Assembly (NCBI GenBank): GCA_030059675.1
Contig: JANVYQ010000001.1
Span: forward strand, 64,001-128,000
Reading direction: 5' to 3'
Source of the DNA: Candidatus Pelearchaeum maunauluense
GTDB taxonomy: Archaea > Thermoproteota > Nitrososphaeria_A > Caldarchaeales > Caldarchaeaceae
Length of the DNA: 64,000 nt
In this document: piece after piece, positions 56,781 through 63,440 of the stretch
How the letters are laid out: each line of letters opens with the position of its first letter
Position numbering within the stretch: position 1 is the first letter of the stretch
Notes under the pieces: model-generated
Databases searched by the model: none
What the model was told of the DNA's origin: nothing
Seen by the model: only the letters and a program-made list of their open reading frames with translations
Program-made: the position numbers and the translations under genes

Positions 56781-57128
56781 ATGTCCCTGGCTAGGCTTCT
56801 CCTGCTAGGCTCTGTGCTAGCTGTGGTGCAGGTTTTGGTGGGTGTTGATATGTTTATGCGCGGCTGGCAGCTTGTCTGGCTTCATATAGGGATAGCTGTG
56901 GTTCTCCTCGTAATACTCCTGGCCTGCATACCGCTCTCACGCGGCTCTGGCAGGGTTAGGAGACATGTCATCATAACGCTGGCGCTCCTACTCATACAGG
57001 GTGCTGTCGGCCTTGATATGTTCATGCGTGGCGACGGCGGGATAAGGGAGGTTATGCACTGGATATTCGGCTTCGCCACGCTGGGCTCGTATATTGGCAC
57101 GGCCTCAATAGCGCGGAGACACAGCTAG
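56781..57128 (+). CDS. 4-TM membrane protein with internal duplication and two His
   Basis: Repeat Q..VG.DMFMRG...(L/M)H occurs twice; start set at ATG 56781. Confidence 0.65.
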   Translation: MSLARLLLLGSVLAVVQVLVGVDMFMRGWQLVWLHIGIAVVLLVILLACIPLSRGSGRVRRHVIITLALLLIQGAVGLDMFMRGDGGIREVMHWIFGFATLGSYIGTASIARRHS

Positions 57129-57697
57129 AGAGACGCGCGCACCATTATGCGCGCGCCCGTTATTACCGACCAGGCCGAGAGCACTATTGCTTCCAGTATC
57201 TCTGGTATGGCCCACCCCTCGGAGGGCGTGCCGAAGATTGCCACCAGCGCCGCTATCCCCATGACGCTGGTGAACGAGCCGTAGAGCGGCCTACCCCCAG
57301 CAACAAGGCCAGCGCCCAAGATTATCATAGCAACTGGGAAGAGTATGAAGTAGCCGAGAGCAACCATCCTGTGTATCTCTGGCCAGTCTAGCGTGAATAT
57401 GCCGACGAGCGCGAGCGACGCTCCCCCAAGAATTAGCATGACGCTCCCTACAGCGTTTATCCTGCTCCGCGGAAGGCTCAGGCGCGCCGCTAGGGCGAAG
57501 AAGAAGTTGAGGACACCAGCTATTATGAGCGCCGTGTTGAAGATTGGAGCAGCCTCACTAACACCCAAGTCGCTCAAAGCGTTAGTCTCCCAGCTAAACC
57601 AGGGAGACACGGCGGTAGCCCAGAAAACCATAACCAGAGCAACAACAGGCCCCACAACACCACACAAACCACCAAAACGAACAAAACCAACAGCCAT
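57125..57697 (-). CDS. DUF998-like membrane protein
   Basis: SPWFSW..NALSDLG, FN..LI..G, VGIF, H..VA..FF, AIPE. Confidence 0.8.
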   Translation of the reverse strand: MAVGFVRFGGLCGVVGPVVALVMVFWATAVSPWFSWETNALSDLGVSEAAPIFNTALIIAGVLNFFFALAARLSLPRSRINAVGSVMLILGGASLALVGIFTLDWPEIHRMVALGYFILFPVAMIILGAGLVAGGRPLYGSFTSVMGIAALVAIFGTPSEGWAIPEILEAIVLSAWSVITGARIMVRASL

Positions 57698-57910: not shown

Positions 57911-58333
57911 GTGCTGCCTGTGGGGCCCCGTTGGCTGGTTATTGAGGTGATTGATGTCTATCCCACCACGCTGGGCCACTGCCCCCACTTTAACCTTGTG
58001 ACGCATGAGCTCGGCGCGGCTGGGGCTGAGTTCTGCCCCCTCTCAGACCAGGTTGTGGAGTATCCGCGCCACGTTATAGAGAGCCATTACAGGGTTGCTG
58101 GCTTGGTTAAGCGGCTCAAGACCCTGTTGAGAGGCCTCCCGCTGAATGTTCAGGTAAGGATGATAGAAGCCACCTCAGCCGTTGGCTTGTGGAAGTGCCT
58201 ACGCCACAGGGTTAGGAGCCAGTCGGCGATACTCGTTAATGGTAGGAAGATATGCGATGGGGATTACTCGCTGGATGAGGCCGCTGAGAGCATAAGGCGG
58301 GAAGCGCTCAGGATTTTGGGCGAGGGGCGCTAG
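57911..58333 (+). CDS. Hypothetical thioredoxin-fold-like protein
   Basis: HCPH N-terminal motif, EYP, beta-strand/AILVNG C-terminus; converges on and overlaps the end of the cstA operon. Confidence 0.55.
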   Translation: MLPVGPRWLVIEVIDVYPTTLGHCPHFNLVTHELGAAGAEFCPLSDQVVEYPRHVIESHYRVAGLVKRLKTLLRGLPLNVQVRMIEATSAVGLWKCLRHRVRSQSAILVNGRKICDGDYSLDEAAESIRREALRILGEGR

Positions 58334-58638
58334 TGGACGGCGTGGCCCTCATGCATTAGCTCCAGCACATCAACCTCGCGCGCCACCAGCTCCTTAATCT
58401 TGATGAAATCACCCACTATGTAGGGGATTAGCCGCAGGGTGTAGTAGTTCCCAAGTATCGGCATCCCTAGAGCCTCGCCCATGATTAATACATAGACTAT
58501 ATCACGATACTTCTGGGCAGTGTGCATGATTTGCTGGTGCATGCCGTAGTAGAACATTCCGAAGAAGAGGTCGCGTAGCTTCTCTTTGAGCGTCCTGCCC
58601 TGCGTGCCTATTCTGAACCTCTCACCCGCGCTACTCAT
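58330..58638 (-). CDS. Small CstA/ArsA-associated protein (paralog 2)
   Basis: FFGM..., LIMGEALGMPILGNYYTLRLIPY. Confidence 0.75.
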   Translation of the reverse strand: MSSAGERFRIGTQGRTLKEKLRDLFFGMFYYGMHQQIMHTAQKYRDIVYVLIMGEALGMPILGNYYTLRLIPYIVGDFIKIKELVAREVDVLELMHEGHAVH

Positions 58639-58640
58639 GG

Positions 58641-59636
58641 TTAGTCTGGCTTAAAAGTATGTAAATCCTCAATAACGCTCCTAAGAGCTTCTACGCCAGT
58701 TATCTCGCGGGGCGCTAGGCGGACGTAGCCGCGTATGTATTCGCCCAGCTCATCCGCGACCATGTCTAGGTAGCGTCTCTGCTCCTCCAGCTTGGTCTTC
58801 AAGTAGCCCGTCGCGTCGCGCTCAGCCTCCTCGCGCGTGAGCACACTATTCACGAAAACACCGCCAATAGGTATGTCAAAGCCCTTCACCATGCCTATGA
58901 AGCGCTTGACGACGGAGATAGGAAGCGCCTGCGGGAGAGTTACGAAGAAGAAGGCCGTCTGCGTGGGGTCTGTCAAAAAACCCCGCGTTACCTTAAACTT
59001 CTCGTGGAGGCTTATCAGGTCTGCTATAATAGGGTCGTTCCTAATCTCTTCCAGTATCTTCTCCTTTCTCACCGCCAGCTTGTACCTGGTTTCCAGCGCT
59101 TCTTTCCTTGATTGTATCATCCTGCTGAGCCAGAGGCCGTAGAGCTTGCTGAGGCCTATTAGCCGTATGGCGTTGGCTACTGCGGCGGTGTCAAAGACTA
59201 TCGCATCATACTCCCTGCTCTCGTCCACCACTATGTCCATAACGCGGTCAAACATCGCCGCCTCTTGGAAAGCTGGGTTGGTGGTTGCTATGTTTATGAA
59301 CGGAGCTGGGTCTAGGGGGACTTCAGCCCATCTGAAGAACTCGCGCAGCCTGCTTGACATCCGCTCCTTATAGCGCTTCACTATCTCCTCAATCTCCACC
59401 TCTATGGCGTATAGGTTAGGTGAGCCTTCCACCTGCTTTACCTTACCCCCGCTCAGCTCCTGCTCAAAGAGGCTTGAGAGGGAGTGCACGGGGTTGAGCG
59501 AGACTAGGAGCGTTTTCTTGCCATTATCCACGGCCAGCTCATAGGCCAGGGCTGCCGCCAAGACTGTCTTTCCCACGCCGCCCTTACCCCCAACGAAGAC
59601 ATACTTCAAGCCATCAACCAGCGCTTCCCTGGGCAT
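58641..59636 (-). CDS. ArsA/Get3/TRC40-family ATPase with degenerate switch motifs
   Basis: GKGGVGKT; switch I SLNPVHSL; switch II DTAAVAN; no Cys. Confidence 0.9.
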   Translation of the reverse strand: MPREALVDGLKYVFVGGKGGVGKTVLAAALAYELAVDNGKKTLLVSLNPVHSLSSLFEQELSGGKVKQVEGSPNLYAIEVEIEEIVKRYKERMSSRLREFFRWAEVPLDPAPFINIATTNPAFQEAAMFDRVMDIVVDESREYDAIVFDTAAVANAIRLIGLSKLYGLWLSRMIQSRKEALETRYKLAVRKEKILEEIRNDPIIADLISLHEKFKVTRGFLTDPTQTAFFFVTLPQALPISVVKRFIGMVKGFDIPIGGVFVNSVLTREEAERDATGYLKTKLEEQRRYLDMVADELGEYIRGYVRLAPREITGVEALRSVIEDLHTFKPD

Positions 59637-59646
59637 GTGTATCCAC

Positions 59647-60636
59647 CTACACGGCAGTGGGCGGGTTTACGAGATATTTCGCAACCTCACCCAGCATGCC
59701 AAGCCCCTTCGGCTCGCGGTCAAACATCGGGATTACCGAGACGACCTTTCCGCCGAACTTCCGCCGTATCTCGTCAAGGTATCTCTGCTGCATCTCAACG
59801 CGGTGGGCTAGGAGCTTTGAGGAGTTGTTGGCCAGACTGCTTGGGAGAACCTGGTTGACCACTATCCCCGAGAGGGTAAGCCCAAGCTCCTTGAACATAT
59901 CCAGCGCCCTCTCTGTGTCAAGTATGGACATCTTCTCAGGCGTCATGACCATGAAGAAAGCGGTCTTCCTCCTGTCCAGCATAACATCCTTGAAGAAGCC
60001 CAGCTTCCTCTGTATGTCGTATAGCTCCTCAAGAACCTTGTCCTCGCTTAGTACGCGCTGGCCGCGCAGGGTTGCGGCTATCTCGTCATACTCCTTAGCC
60101 TTCTTACGCGCGTCTGTTATCCTATCAACCCACATGCTCAGAATCTCCGCCATCGCTATCATCCTAACACCATGACCAAACGGTGGCATGTCAAAGATGT
60201 AGTAATCATACTTACCCTCCGCCAAGTATTCAGCCATAGCATCATAGGTAGCAGACTCGTACATAGCTGGCTCCACCGCAGAGGTCTCAATATACGACTC
60301 AATCTCAGGCGGAATCTCCTCCATCTTATACATCTCTCTAATCTTCCTCTTCACATCCTCAATATACTCGCGTATCCTTTTGTCAGCATCTATCTCGACG
60401 ACGTATAGGTTTGGGGCTACCTCTATCTCGCCCTTCCCGAATATGTCGCGCTCGAAGATGTCGCTGAGTGAGGCTTGGGGGTCTGTGCTGAAGCAGAGGC
60501 AGCGTTTCCCCTCGTTAACCGCTAGGTGGTATGCGAGAGCCGCGCTGCATGTCGTCTTGCCCAGCCCACCCTTACCAGCGAAGATTATCATCTTAGTCTC
60601 GTTGTTCTGCTCCAAGTATTGGCGAAGCCCAATCAT
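59647..60636 (-). CDS. ArsA/Get3/TRC40-family ATPase
   Basis: GKGGLGKTT, STDPQASL, DMPPFGH, PE..S..D, VVNQ. Confidence 0.92.
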   Translation of the reverse strand: MIGLRQYLEQNNETKMIIFAGKGGLGKTTCSAALAYHLAVNEGKRCLCFSTDPQASLSDIFERDIFGKGEIEVAPNLYVVEIDADKRIREYIEDVKRKIREMYKMEEIPPEIESYIETSAVEPAMYESATYDAMAEYLAEGKYDYYIFDMPPFGHGVRMIAMAEILSMWVDRITDARKKAKEYDEIAATLRGQRVLSEDKVLEELYDIQRKLGFFKDVMLDRRKTAFFMVMTPEKMSILDTERALDMFKELGLTLSGIVVNQVLPSSLANNSSKLLAHRVEMQQRYLDEIRRKFGGKVVSVIPMFDREPKGLGMLGEVAKYLVNPPTAV

Positions 60637-60648
60637 TATGTCTTCACC

Positions 60649-60927
60649 CTACCCATAGATTATGTCGGTGAAGTCTCTCTCGCGGTAGAACCTATGCTTC
60701 CAAGACTTTATGCTGGGTATCGTGTAGGGTAGGAGCCTGAGCGAGTAGTATGGGGGGAGTATGGGGAGCCCCAACATATCCCCCAAAATCATGAGCGTGA
60801 AGAGATGCTCAATGTACATCCTGGTTTTGAGGACGCCTGTTACCTGCGAGTGAAGCGCCATACCATAAGTTACTTGCTTCACCGCGTCCTTTAGCTTGTC
60901 GAATACTCCTGACCGTTTCTCCGACAT
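60649..60927 (-). CDS. Small CstA/ArsA-associated protein (paralog 1)
   Basis: YGM..., LMILGDMLGLPILPPYYSLRLLPY..P....WK. Confidence 0.78.
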   Translation of the reverse strand: MSEKRSGVFDKLKDAVKQVTYGMALHSQVTGVLKTRMYIEHLFTLMILGDMLGLPILPPYYSLRLLPYTIPSIKSWKHRFYRERDFTDIIYG

Positions 60928-61014
60928 CAGAAGCTCGTTAATATAGTTGCTGCTCTCGGCTTTAAAGATTTGTATATTTTCAAAAATTCCAAGAAATAAT
61001 TGGGGAGGGGGTTT

Positions 61015-62754
61015 CTATTGGGCTGGCTTGACGGCGGCAGCCTTCGCTCTGCTCAGCGCCTTGAGCAACAGCGCGAACATCACTATTCCTAGTATGAACA
61101 TTATTACGCCGACGACCACCGAGAAGCCGTTAATCGCCTGCACAGCGCCTATCCCAGCGGCTTCCTTCAAGATGTTCTGCGTCGGATGCAGCAGCATAGC
61201 CTGCGTGGTAGCTACGAAGAATACATAGACCTGATACGCTATAGCCGCGAGCGTCGTAATCATCATGAATATTCCTGGTATCAGCGAGTATGATGATGGC
61301 TTTCTCTGCTGTAGTAGGTAGACCGCGACTATTGTGAGGGCGAAGCCTGCGAGGAGCTGGTTTGTTCCTCCGAAGTAGAGCCAGATGTTTATCCAGCTTC
61401 CAGTGAGGACGAACGCTATAGGCAGGACGAACCCTAGGACCGACGCAACATACTTGTTTCCTAGTATGCTTAGTGATGTGCCGCCGAAGACTTCAGCCAT
61501 GACTACGCGCCAATATCTTCCGAGGATTGTCATTATGGTGATGGCCATGAAGACCATGTAGATGGAGAAGAATGTGCTGATGAATGGCGCTGCTGCCTCT
61601 CCTCCTGCTATCGGTGCGACGAGCTTCGTGGCGCCTTGCGGGAATGTGTCTGGGCTTACGCTCACAGGTGCTAGGACAACCCAAGCCGCGAGGGAGGTTA
61701 GGCCTACTGTGTTCTCCGTTAGCATGGCTCCAGCGCCCACAGGCCTGGCGTCAGTCTCAACGTCTAGCTGTCTAGACGAGATGCCCGTACTGATGAGGCT
61801 ATGCCAGCCAGAGATTGCTCCGCACGCGATAGATACGAAGAGCGCTGGCCATAGAGGCCCAGAGCTAAACGTGCCTTCAAAGCCCTTGAAGGCTGGCACG
61901 GCCAGCTCTATACCCGTCAGCGGCGAGGCGAGGGCGCCAACCGCTAGGGCGATTATAGCAACGATTACTGGATAGTATGCGATGTAGTTCATGGGCGTTA
62001 TCAGCCTTGGGAGCGGCAGTAGGGCGCCGAGGAGTAGTAGGATAACTATCGGAACCAGCCAGAGCGTATATGGCGAGCCTGGTTTTCCGCCCAGCGTTAG
62101 GGAGCCTGGTGGAGGCCATGCGAAGAGTGTTCCGACGATTATCCCAACCACCAGCAGGGCTATGGCCAATGCCGTTACTGCTAGTATGTTCATCCTGACG
62201 TTGAAGATCAGGTGTCCCGTGATGAAGGAGGCAGCAACTAGGAAGAGGAGAGTCCAGAAGGAGCTTGGGAATACATCTATGACCACCGCGACGACGTAGA
62301 TGAAGGCGGCGTTGATTAGCAGGAAGTAGAAGAGGAGGAAGCCCAGCAGTAGTTTTCGCGCGGTCGGGCCTATTAGCTCGTAAGCCAGCGGGCCGAAGGA
62401 CTTGCCCTCATTCCTCACCGAGAGGAAGAGGGCGCTGTAGTCCTGTACCCAGCCTATGAGCAGCGCGGCGAAGATAATCCAGAGGAACGCGGGCAGCCAG
62501 CCGAAGATTAGCGCTATGCCAGGCCCCAGTATCGGGCCCAGCGCGGCTATGCTGTTGAACTGGAAGCCGTATAGCACATAGCGCCCCACTGGGAAGAACT
62601 CCACGCCATCCGTGTACATGTGTGCTGGCGTGGGCCTGGCGGGGTCTGGCTGCCATATCTTGCGGTCTATCGCTTTGCTATATCCCCAGTACGCGAGGGC
62701 GTAGATTAGCAGGCCGACGGCGACGAGAGTAAAAGGTGTGTTGTGTATTGCCAC
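61015..62754 (-). CDS. cstA: Carbon starvation protein A (CstA) family transporter
   Basis: TPAH...DG..F.P, FNSIAALGPILGP, GWLPA, SIACGAISGWHSL, GAML.E, W..FG..NQLLA. Confidence 0.95.
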   Translation of the reverse strand: MAIHNTPFTLVAVGLLIYALAYWGYSKAIDRKIWQPDPARPTPAHMYTDGVEFFPVGRYVLYGFQFNSIAALGPILGPGIALIFGWLPAFLWIIFAALLIGWVQDYSALFLSVRNEGKSFGPLAYELIGPTARKLLLGFLLFYFLLINAAFIYVVAVVIDVFPSSFWTLLFLVAASFITGHLIFNVRMNILAVTALAIALLVVGIIVGTLFAWPPPGSLTLGGKPGSPYTLWLVPIVILLLLGALLPLPRLITPMNYIAYYPVIVAIIALAVGALASPLTGIELAVPAFKGFEGTFSSGPLWPALFVSIACGAISGWHSLISTGISSRQLDVETDARPVGAGAMLTENTVGLTSLAAWVVLAPVSVSPDTFPQGATKLVAPIAGGEAAAPFISTFFSIYMVFMAITIMTILGRYWRVVMAEVFGGTSLSILGNKYVASVLGFVLPIAFVLTGSWINIWLYFGGTNQLLAGFALTIVAVYLLQQRKPSSYSLIPGIFMMITTLAAIAYQVYVFFVATTQAMLLHPTQNILKEAAGIGAVQAINGFSVVVGVIMFILGIVMFALLLKALSRAKAAAVKPAQ

Positions 62755-62873
62755 GGCCTTTTTCCCTCTCTTTTTAAGCGTTAATCGCTACTGAATTCTA
62801 TATAAAATTTTTAAAATCTTTTAAAATCACTACAAATCACAAAAAGTTAAAACTTAAAAATGATGACGCAGGT

Positions 62874-63440
62874 ATGACGCCAAGCCTTGAGAATGAGATT
62901 TTTTCCAACAATTCCCAGGTGAGGTGTTTATGTTTGGATGAAAAATTCGTTGAGCATATCTTATCTGTCGGCAATCCTGTCCTTGGTGTTTTCCGCTACC
63001 TGGTTCTCCAGCTCCCTGAGGGCTGGGTTGTTAAGAGTAGCGAGATACCTCCAGAAGTTTCATACACAACAGAGTATAATGGCGTTGGATATGTTGTGGA
63101 TGGGCTCACCCATCATTACATTACCAGCGTGCTTGGTGAGGAGACTCTACAACTAACGATAAGGTGTAACAGGATTAGGGGCGAGCTCGGCGTGAATACG
63201 CGGGGCTTGGGTAGCTATTCGCTTGGCAGAACACAGGTAGCTGGACATTCATGCGTCTATGTTTATGGTGAGAAGCTGGTGGGGTTCTTCAGGAAGGAGA
63301 GGATGCGCTATCTCGCTATGGTCTTTGATTGCGGCTTTACGGGTAGGCGTATAGAGCTACGCCTCTTGGGGAGATACTCAAGCGGCGCCGCTATGGAGAG
63401 GCTTATCCCAGCGTTAGAGCAGAGCCGTTGCCACGGCTAA
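62874..63440 (+). CDS. Hypothetical protein
   Basis: 188-aa ORF divergent from cstA; start uncertain. Confidence 0.55.
   Translation: MTPSLENEIFSNNSQVRCLCLDEKFVEHILSVGNPVLGVFRYLVLQLPEGWVVKSSEIPPEVSYTTEYNGVGYVVDGLTHHYITSVLGEETLQLTIRCNRIRGELGVNTRGLGSYSLGRTQVAGHSCVYVYGEKLVGFFRKERMRYLAMVFDCGFTGRRIELRLLGRYSSGAAMERLIPALEQSRCHG

Follow-up and report, generated by a model that had tools for sequence, protein, structure and literature searches.

Gene organization of the cstA locus

We analysed a stretch of 64,000 nucleotides (nt) from Candidatus Pelearchaeum maunauluense, a member of the Caldarchaeales (contig JANVYQ010000001.1, positions 64,001 to 128,000), which is called the window in the following. 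Near its end, at 58330..62754, the window carries cstA, which encodes a permease of the CstA family, followed by the genes for a small protein (S1), two ATPases (A and B) and a second small protein (S2). All five open reading frames (ORFs) are read from the minus strand and are separated by 87, 12, 10 and 2 nt; positions, orientation and gaps are those given in a preliminary description of the window. That description had also called the locus a duplicated module. Duplication is indeed found, in two sets of paralogues: S1/S2 (29% identity over 80 amino acids (aa), E 3e-13) and A/B (29% identity over 300 aa, E 6e-41). The order S1-A-B-S2, however, represents two ancient paralogous pairs and not a tandem copy of a small-protein/ATPase unit, and many bacteria have the order cstA-S-S-A-B instead. 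The duplication of A/B and S1/S2 is ancient and asymmetric, not recent.

The Pfam match of the cstA product is split and covers positions 4-356 and 412-560 of the PF02554 model. When compared with the NCBIfam equivalog for E. coli CstA, the protein scored 163.8 bits (cut-off 1188), and its sequence places it in a divergent CstA subfamily. It contains numerous hydrophobic windows, and no match was found among the PDB sequences. The gene is present as a single copy in the genome (1.79 Mb, 94% complete).

Table 1. Genes and other features of the locus, with positions in the window
Feature	Position	Strand	Description
cstA	62754..61015	-	579 aa, CstA-family permease; PF02554, E 3.7e-101
S1	60927..60649	-	92 aa, DUF7990 (PF25952) as judged from its homologues, hairpin predicted; probable 'CstX' of Castillo & Saier
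ATPase A	60636..59647	-	329 aa; PF02374, E 3.1e-70; TIGR00345, 231.9 bits
ATPase B	59636..58641	-	331 aa; PF02374, E 4.4e-53; TIGR00345, 187.2 bits
S2	58638..58330	-	102 aa, divergent DUF7990 paralogue of S1
T140	57911..58333	+	140 aa; convergent with S2, 4-nt overlap; homologues in 27/80 related loci
O188	62874..63440	+	188 aa; divergent from cstA; homologues in 16/80 related loci
Y226	63428..>64000 (full ORF L089:729-1409)	+	226 aa, extends past the window; homologues in 23/80 loci
cstA-S1 spacer	60928..61014	-	87 nt, AT-rich; T5 run, TATA-like boxes
Region 5' of cstA	62755..62830	-	AT-rich; TTTATATA box about 45-50 nt before the GTG start

ATPases A and B

As judged from their sequences, both ATPases belong to the Get3/ArsA family. 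They exceed the cut-off of 135 bits set for TIGR00345, the model of the Get3/ArsA/TRC40 subfamily (Table 1), and they are the only proteins in the genome that score above the cut-off of PF02374. The closest solved sequences are those of archaeal Get3 (3ug6; E 3e-55 for A and 1.5e-44 for B). A structural model of A (mean predicted confidence, pLDDT, 83) has its best fold matches in 3ug7 and 3zq6 (template modelling (TM) score 0.77, 31-35% identity), so that the label 'Get3-like' of the preliminary description is borne out. The same model has a low-confidence loop (residues 192-199) between helices 153-191 and 200-220, and no separate helix-8 lid.

In an alignment of 71 A-type and 66 B-type sequences, neither type shows any variation in the deviant Walker A motif (P-loop). 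Switch I carries Asp in 71/71 A-type sequences (Asp52 at this locus) and Asn in 66/66 B-type sequences (Asn48). In switch II, A keeps the motif D..P.GH; in B the His is changed to Asn in 64/66 sequences, and Gly-His is not present. According to HMMER alignments, the Asn of B faces the Asp of Get3/ArsA switch I, which is part of 'STDPAHS' in archaeal Get3. The switch I aspartates of ArsA are described as catalytic, and an Asp-to-Asn variant of ArsA, which does not hydrolyze ATP, was used for trapping the ATP state, as with Get3 (PMC12415280, in part). The PDB entry 9nbo differs from 9nbl by the same switch I change, and the title of entry 9ns5 names 'Get3(D57N)'. The catalytic site of A looks complete (P-loop, Asp52 in switch I, D..P.GH in switch II), and B should bind ATP but should not hydrolyze it, because Asn replaces the switch I Asp. 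We infer that A and B are most likely obligate partners in a heterodimer of the Get3 fold, in which one ATP site works.

B contains no cysteine at all, the CxxC zinc motif is absent from A, and no column of the A or B alignments holds an invariant Cys. Because B is free of Cys and no Cys column is invariant, the pair has neither the metalloid site of ArsA nor a CxxC zinc clasp. CxxC at the dimer interface is a feature of fungal and animal Get3. Some archaeal Get3 proteins lack it as well (PMC6593721, in part).

Small proteins S1 and S2

The precomputed Pfam tag PF25952 is carried by all 120 listed of the 123 homologues of S1, and the Atlas name of this family is DUF7990. The Atlas clusters nearest to S1 are 99-100% PF25952, and the family comprises 463 clusters at E ≤1e-3 among 1.84 billion representatives. 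The core of the family, which surrounds the invariant motif G.PILPPYY..R..P, is near-invariant from archaea to Chloroflexota, Thermodesulfobacteriota, Methylomirabilota and Actinomycetota. Conservation of S1 is unusually high, with about 50% identity between archaea and bacteria. The conserved copy is the one directly upstream of A (S1-type); the second copy is more divergent and mobile in position.

In its structural model (pLDDT 73), S1 folds into a hairpin of two helices (5-51 and 59-91), with the invariant G.PILPPYY at the tip. When this model was compared with the PDB by Foldseek, no match at E 0.001 or better was found; a profile of the small proteins had no match among PDB sequences at E ≤10, and a Pfam scan of 26 small proteins at E ≤10 gave chance matches only. 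The maximum of the Kyte-Doolittle plot (19-residue window) of S1 is 1.56, and the window in question includes Glu, His and Asp, so that the hydrophobic segment is borderline as a membrane helix.

NF041419 (cory-CC-star) was matched by S1 and S2 with 30.1 and 33.2 bits (cut-off 80; E 3.7e-8 for S2). All 26 family members tested match this model below its cut-off (best E 2e-9), which suggests that DUF7990 is a distant relative of cory-CC-star and not a member. Neither S1 nor S2 has a C-terminal Cys-Cys.

The small proteins were also considered as homologues of YbdD/YjiX (DUF466), and this assignment was rejected for want of support. The hhalign probability was 0.4% against YbdD and 0.3% against a 23-row DUF466 alignment, which is of low diversity (74-91% identity), and PF04328 (DUF466) had no match in the genome at E ≤1. 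At the level of motifs, S1 (residues 51-60 and 80-84) resembles E. coli YbdD (L088:3683-3880) in a G-[LM]-P loop to which F-[FY]-R-E-R is added about 26 residues later.

Conservation of the arrangement and its link to CstA

A pattern scan over one genome per species detected at least 615 stretches, from which about 920 are estimated for the whole collection. The best 80 loci were analysed by phmmer against six-frame ORFs. The best public locus related to that of S1 is from a Candidatus Pelearchaeum genome (98% identity), and those of the listed homologues that come closest to S1 bear the names Candidatus Caldarchaeum and Nitrososphaerota. Where at least 2.3 kb of sequence is available downstream of the small gene, A and then B follow directly 3' of it in 63/64 loci; the sole exception, L033, has a partial A. 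The S-A-B arrangement is far beyond chance.

CstA is encoded upstream on the same strand and within 2.5 kb in 37 of the 52 loci with sufficient upstream sequence. It is found anywhere in the locus in 23 of the 29 loci that have 6 kb or more on each side. For the loci without it, of which there are six, CstA is encoded elsewhere in the genome in all five tested (L053 was left out). The commonest orders are C-S-S-A-B (20 loci), C-S-A-B (16 loci) and C-S-A-B-S with the last S on either strand (8 loci), C standing for cstA. Among the fully flanked loci, 22/29 contain a second, more divergent S gene at varying positions, and most S-positive Thermoproteota genomes have two S copies about 2.2 kb apart.

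We further compared, by hand, the genome lists for S and CstA in an evenly drawn sample of 401 genomes of the phylum. S was present in 50 and CstA in 90 of these genomes. All 50 S-positive genomes were CstA-positive, versus 40 of the 351 S-negative ones. Taken one by one, the four families of the order from which the window comes give identical tallies for S and for CstA (11/16, 2/25, 5/15 and 3/3). That the two genes are patchily present or absent together, even inside a family, speaks for a functional unit, although the relatives are not independent of each other. The genomic link of the ATPases to CstA, as suspected in the preliminary description, is strong in other genomes, be it by neighbourhood (23/29 loci), by presence elsewhere in the genome (5/5) or by co-occurrence with S (50/50).

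Two observations concern individual genomes. In G048 and G327, from a Pyrobaculum-like family (f14), one in-frame TAG lies inside the match of the second S copy; the copy may be a pseudogene or a shorter gene, or the codon may be a sequencing error. In G123, G182, G258 and G203, weaker DUF7990-like ORFs (E 5e-7 to 9e-10) adjoin a different, more E. coli-like CstA subfamily, in divergent orientation in three of the four genomes.

Predicted complex of A, B and S1

One complex prediction with controls was performed for A, B and S1 together with 2 ATP; the 41-row alignments came from the same loci. The interface scores (ipSAE) were 0.62, 0.64 and 0.61. The best of the three controls reached 0.19 (B replaced), and the two partner swaps gave 0.00 and 0.00. 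The partner pLDDT in these runs was 56-58, and contact agreement was at least 70%. The same score is reached by 116/157 solved complexes and by 2/215 mismatched pairs, a calibration that applies only roughly to a prediction made with our own alignments.

In the predicted complex, residues 32-70 of S1, which include the hairpin tip, contact A at 88-132, 155-180 and 200-212 and B at 93-130, 158-180 and 207-210. In the model of A, these ranges fall on the helical subdomain and its five helices (84-103, 110-120, 123-140, 153-191 and 200-220). In Get3, this region forms the client groove (PMC6593721, in part). About 70% of the predicted contact residues are hydrophobic. Invariant columns make up 17/38 of the contact residues versus 49/291 of the others in A, 13/28 versus 53/303 in B, and 14/34 versus 10/58 in S1. 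The prediction suggests that the S1 tip is held in the helical groove of A/B. Such binding would fit a role of the small proteins as adaptors, without choosing between an ATPase that energizes or gates CstA and one that assembles it.

Accessory genes T140, O188 and Y226

The module reaches beyond 58330..62754, since T140, O188 and Y226 belong to the conserved gene set (Table 1). None of the three had a match in Pfam (E ≤1 in the case of Y226) or NCBIfam. A paralogue of T140 lies just past the end of the window (128 aa; G000:C2:128071-128457, corresponding to L089:1372-1758, minus strand; 23% identity, E 2e-11), and T140 and its paralogue flank the module. We considered T140 as an ArsD-like protein and rejected this, as PF06953 has no match at the locus.

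Y226 has an N-terminal hydrophobic helix followed by a domain. Its Atlas model was matched to a cluster of eukaryotic CCDC47 (PF07946) with a TM score by query of 0.72 over residues 7-226 (features score 0.80). A search with the Pfam model of CCDC47 (PF07946) gave no sequence match at E ≤1. Y226 would be CCDC47-like by fold, as compared between predicted models, and not by family membership.

Proteins in which a T140-like domain is fused to DUF7990 were found as P0304 and P0277, on contigs of 24 kb and 826 kb; they are better supported than the other fusions encountered. These are an S-S fusion, P0242, with a single member on an 800-bp contig, and a CstA-S fragment, P0264, known from one read-level record. 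Neither of these two carries enough weight to be counted.

Comparison with known systems

Clusters of cstA, cstX and an arsA homologue have been reported on the basis of comparative genomics, with 26 SEED instances from bacteria and archaea (Castillo & Saier 2010, PMC2963123, in excerpt). The excerpted text describes CstX as a protein of about 90 aa that never occurs without CstA, and proposes that the ATPase energizes CstA with CstX as linker. The preliminary description had mentioned a linkage between CstA and ArsA in bacteria; it was already in print, for bacteria and archaea and with the same idea of coupling. The locus belongs to this known type of cluster, here in Caldarchaeales: a CstA-family permease gene lies beside the ATPase genes, 87 nt upstream of S1. 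Like the published clusters, as far as they are described in the excerpt, it has a CstA permease, two small paralogues of about 90 aa and no ars genes. In their cluster 15 (Pyrobaculum arsenaticum and Symbiobacterium thermophilum), two ArsA homologues are adjacent and share 25-31% identity; the same holds here for two adjacent single-domain ATPases of about 330 aa (29% identity). For P. arsenaticum, 31% identity between the adjacent ATPase paralogues and two CstX paralogues are given. An accessory protein of about 210 aa with a single transmembrane segment, present in some of the archaeal clusters, has a probable counterpart at our locus as well. Thermococcus kodakarensis and Pyrobaculum are among the carriers of the module that Castillo & Saier list, and a match below the cut-off in the control genome of Haloferax volcanii suggests that the module exists there too.

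By size and position, though not by comparison of sequences, S is probably the CstX of Castillo & Saier, and Y226 is probably their 'CstY'. The excerpted text does not contain the Asp-to-Asn asymmetry of the second ATPase, a structural model, the DUF7990 assignment, the T140 and O188 families or the CCDC47-like fold of Y226. Literature searches found no functional study of the cstA-cstX-arsA-homologue cluster, and a search for DUF7990/PF25952 found no paper.

Archaeal Get3 (M. jannaschii 3ug6/3ug7, M. thermautotrophicus 3zq6) resembles the pair in its fold, its deviant Walker A motif and its helical client-binding subdomain. Unlike archaeal Get3, which is a homodimer or tetramer, A and B would be a heterodimer of two paralogues, one of them with Asn at the position of the catalytic Asp. 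Switch II is altered in both subunits, and the model of A has no separate helix 8. The genes also differ in their context, as archaeal Get3 is encoded by a stand-alone gene and the pair is tied to CstA and DUF7990.

ArsA belongs to the same ATPase family; its two halves are not equivalent, it binds to a secondary carrier, and its ligand site lies between the helical subdomains (PMC12415280, in part). At this place, a protein hairpin instead of a metalloid is predicted here. ArsA has two fused domains and a Cys triad and occurs with ArsD, ArsR and either ArsB or Acr3, none of which is found at this locus. The preliminary description had stated that ars genes are absent, and none is linked: ArsD and Acr3 had no match anywhere in the genome. 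A weak match to the ArsB family (PF02040, 31.8 bits) was detected at G000:C2:246947-248122, about 121 kb from the ATPase genes and unlinked to them.

In mycobacteria, the adjacent Get3-like ATPases BagA and BagB (Rv3679/Rv3680, PDB 6bs3) form a heterodimer. Similarity of our pair to the 6bs3 chains is distant (E 2e-6 and 1e-9). With the BagA and BagB equivalogs, the scores were 26.5-55.1 bits (cut-offs 400 and 521), and the pair likewise stays far below the cut-off of the NosAFP equivalog. We know of no CstA or DUF7990 context for BagAB.

For E. coli CstA, the small protein YbdD is genetically required for pyruvate uptake (PMC5847655, in part). As in CstA-YbdD and BtsT-YjiX of E. coli, a carrier of the CstA family is encoded beside a small protein at our locus. 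In contrast to these systems with DUF466 partners, ATPases are present here, S has no terminal Cys-Cys, and the likeness between the small proteins is at the level of motifs alone.

Possible roles of the ATPase pair

The reading that we prefer, to which we give somewhat less than an even chance, is that the locus encodes a CstA complex that is coupled to or gated by ATP. In this complex, the obligate A/B heterodimer with its one working ATP site would use the helical subdomains of both subunits as a conserved, largely hydrophobic groove that grips the invariant tip of the S1 hairpin; S2 would probably be gripped likewise, by paralogy. The small proteins would tie the ATPase to the CstA permease. 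Closing and opening of the groove, driven by nucleotide, would then drive or gate substrate uptake, by analogy with ArsA acting on the secondary carrier ArsB. The substrate might be pyruvate or peptides, if the analogy with E. coli CstA holds. Compared with the interpretation in the preliminary description, the Get3/ArsA family, the link to CstA and the lack of ars genes are retained; the duplication is not tandem, and the predicted non-hydrolyzing B and the additional genes of the module had been missed.

Several points weigh against the ATP-coupled complex. A contact of S or of the ATPases with CstA is a supposition of ours, and six of the 29 fully flanked loci have no adjacent cstA. In E. 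coli, carriers of the CstA family operate without an ATPase, and the comparison of profiles gave no link between S and YbdD (probability 0.3%). The excess of invariant residues among the predicted contacts cannot be counted as evidence independent of the alignments supplied to the model, and the complex score is perhaps partly a memory of solved complexes of Get3 with tail anchors (4xtr, 4xvu, 4xwo). cstA and S1-A-B-S2 may be separate transcripts, because a T5 run and TATA-like boxes lie in the 87-nt spacer. Finally, the presence of the CCDC47-like Y226 in the module favours a role in assembly.

Get3 and CCDC47 are membrane-protein biogenesis factors in eukaryotes. A dedicated assembly machine, in which A/B would chaperone the S1/S2 hairpin or segments of CstA to the membrane with Y226 as membrane-side partner, is to us the main alternative, though less likely than the complex just described; the ATPase would then serve the building of the CstA complex and not transport. 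It draws on the nearest relatives of the pair by sequence and fold, which are archaeal Get3 (3ug6, TM score for the fold as above), on the predicted position of S1 in the same helical groove where Get3 holds tail anchors, on the borderline membrane helix of S1 and on the CCDC47-like gene, which is found in 23 of the 80 loci. That A and B are the sole proteins above the PF02374 cut-off is in its favour as well. Against it stands the B site, which is predicted not to hydrolyze ATP in 66/66 sequences, unlike that of the symmetric Get3, and would suit an attached motor better than a shuttle that opens fully. The pair is also devoid of a CxxC zinc motif and of any invariant Cys, the model of A shows a low-confidence loop (192-199) but no separate helix-8 lid, and charged residues and prolines are found within the hydrophobic segments of both S1 and S2. 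Moreover, the near-invariance of S1 across domains exceeds what a passive client would need.

A nucleotide-state switch, in which A/B would sense ATP/ADP and sequester or release the S tip to toggle a proton-driven CstA, seems less probable still. GlnK, which plugs AmtB, offers an analogy, and degenerate ATP sites are typically found in subunits with a sensing or latching role. The co-occurrence of S with CstA and the predicted capture of the S1 tip fit this switch as well as they fit energy coupling, and CstA is tied to carbon starvation in E. coli (PMC5847655, in part). No evidence is specific to the switch, which is indistinguishable from the ATP-coupled complex with the methods used. Two further explanations are contradicted by the evidence. 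That the pair is a general archaeal Get3 for tail-anchored proteins, lying beside cstA by chance, is very improbable: the closest solved structures are archaeal Get3 and the genome has no other gene of the Get3 family, but S, which occurs with A-B in 63/64 loci, is present in just 50/401 genomes and always alongside CstA, and a housekeeping targeting factor would not track a single transporter. The catalytic degeneration of B and the conservation of the groove-lining residues together with S1 do not fit a general factor either. Hardly credible at all is a true ArsA, the ATPase of an arsenite/antimonite pump. Database names ('anion-transporting ATPase', 'arsenical pump-driving ATPase') and sequence similarity point in this direction, but A and B are single domains of about 330 aa and not two-domain proteins of about 590 aa. 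They score 98.3 and 101.8 bits with the equivalog TIGR04291 (cut-off 650), the metalloid-binding Cys triad is absent, the genome has no ArsD or Acr3, and the weak ArsB-family match is about 121 kb away.

The function of prokaryotic Get3/ArsA homologues outside arsenic resistance has been called unclear (PMC6593721, in part). The module offers a concrete test case that is conserved widely, with a defined partner (the DUF7990 hairpin), a membrane protein (CstA) and an ATPase pair that appears to be half dead. As the cluster has been in print since 2010, the value of our analysis lies in a sharper and testable model, not in the discovery of the locus. If ATP coupling is true, a family that is treated as proton symporters includes ATP-assisted members, which would have a bearing on carbon scavenging by thermophiles and anaerobes. 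We consider it unlikely, yet worth stating, that the module is a prokaryotic machine for membrane-protein biogenesis, in which a single-site heterodimer of the Get3 type and a CCDC47-like protein load hairpins onto a multipass carrier or assemble it. Such a machine would correspond, in bacteria and archaea, to parts of the GET and PAT systems of eukaryotes, of which it may even be a forerunner, and it would provide a defined natural client for prokaryotic Get3 homologues.

Neighbouring gene and transcription signals

A gene for a DUF998 membrane protein (PF06197, E 1e-22) adjoins the module at 57125-57697 on the minus strand. It was considered as a member of the module and rejected, as a homologue is present in only one of the 80 loci, the near-identical L006.

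The AT-rich region upstream of cstA, with its TTTATATA box, is likely an archaeal promoter; the box was judged against the archaeal TATA consensus. Nine cstA-S1 spacers of relatives were aligned. A TTTT run is invariant in all nine, and a box resembling TTTTT(T)AAATA precedes S1 in five of them, including spacers of some Caldarchaeales relatives (L009, L012, L014 and L017). The 87-nt spacer may contain a terminator, an internal promoter or both.

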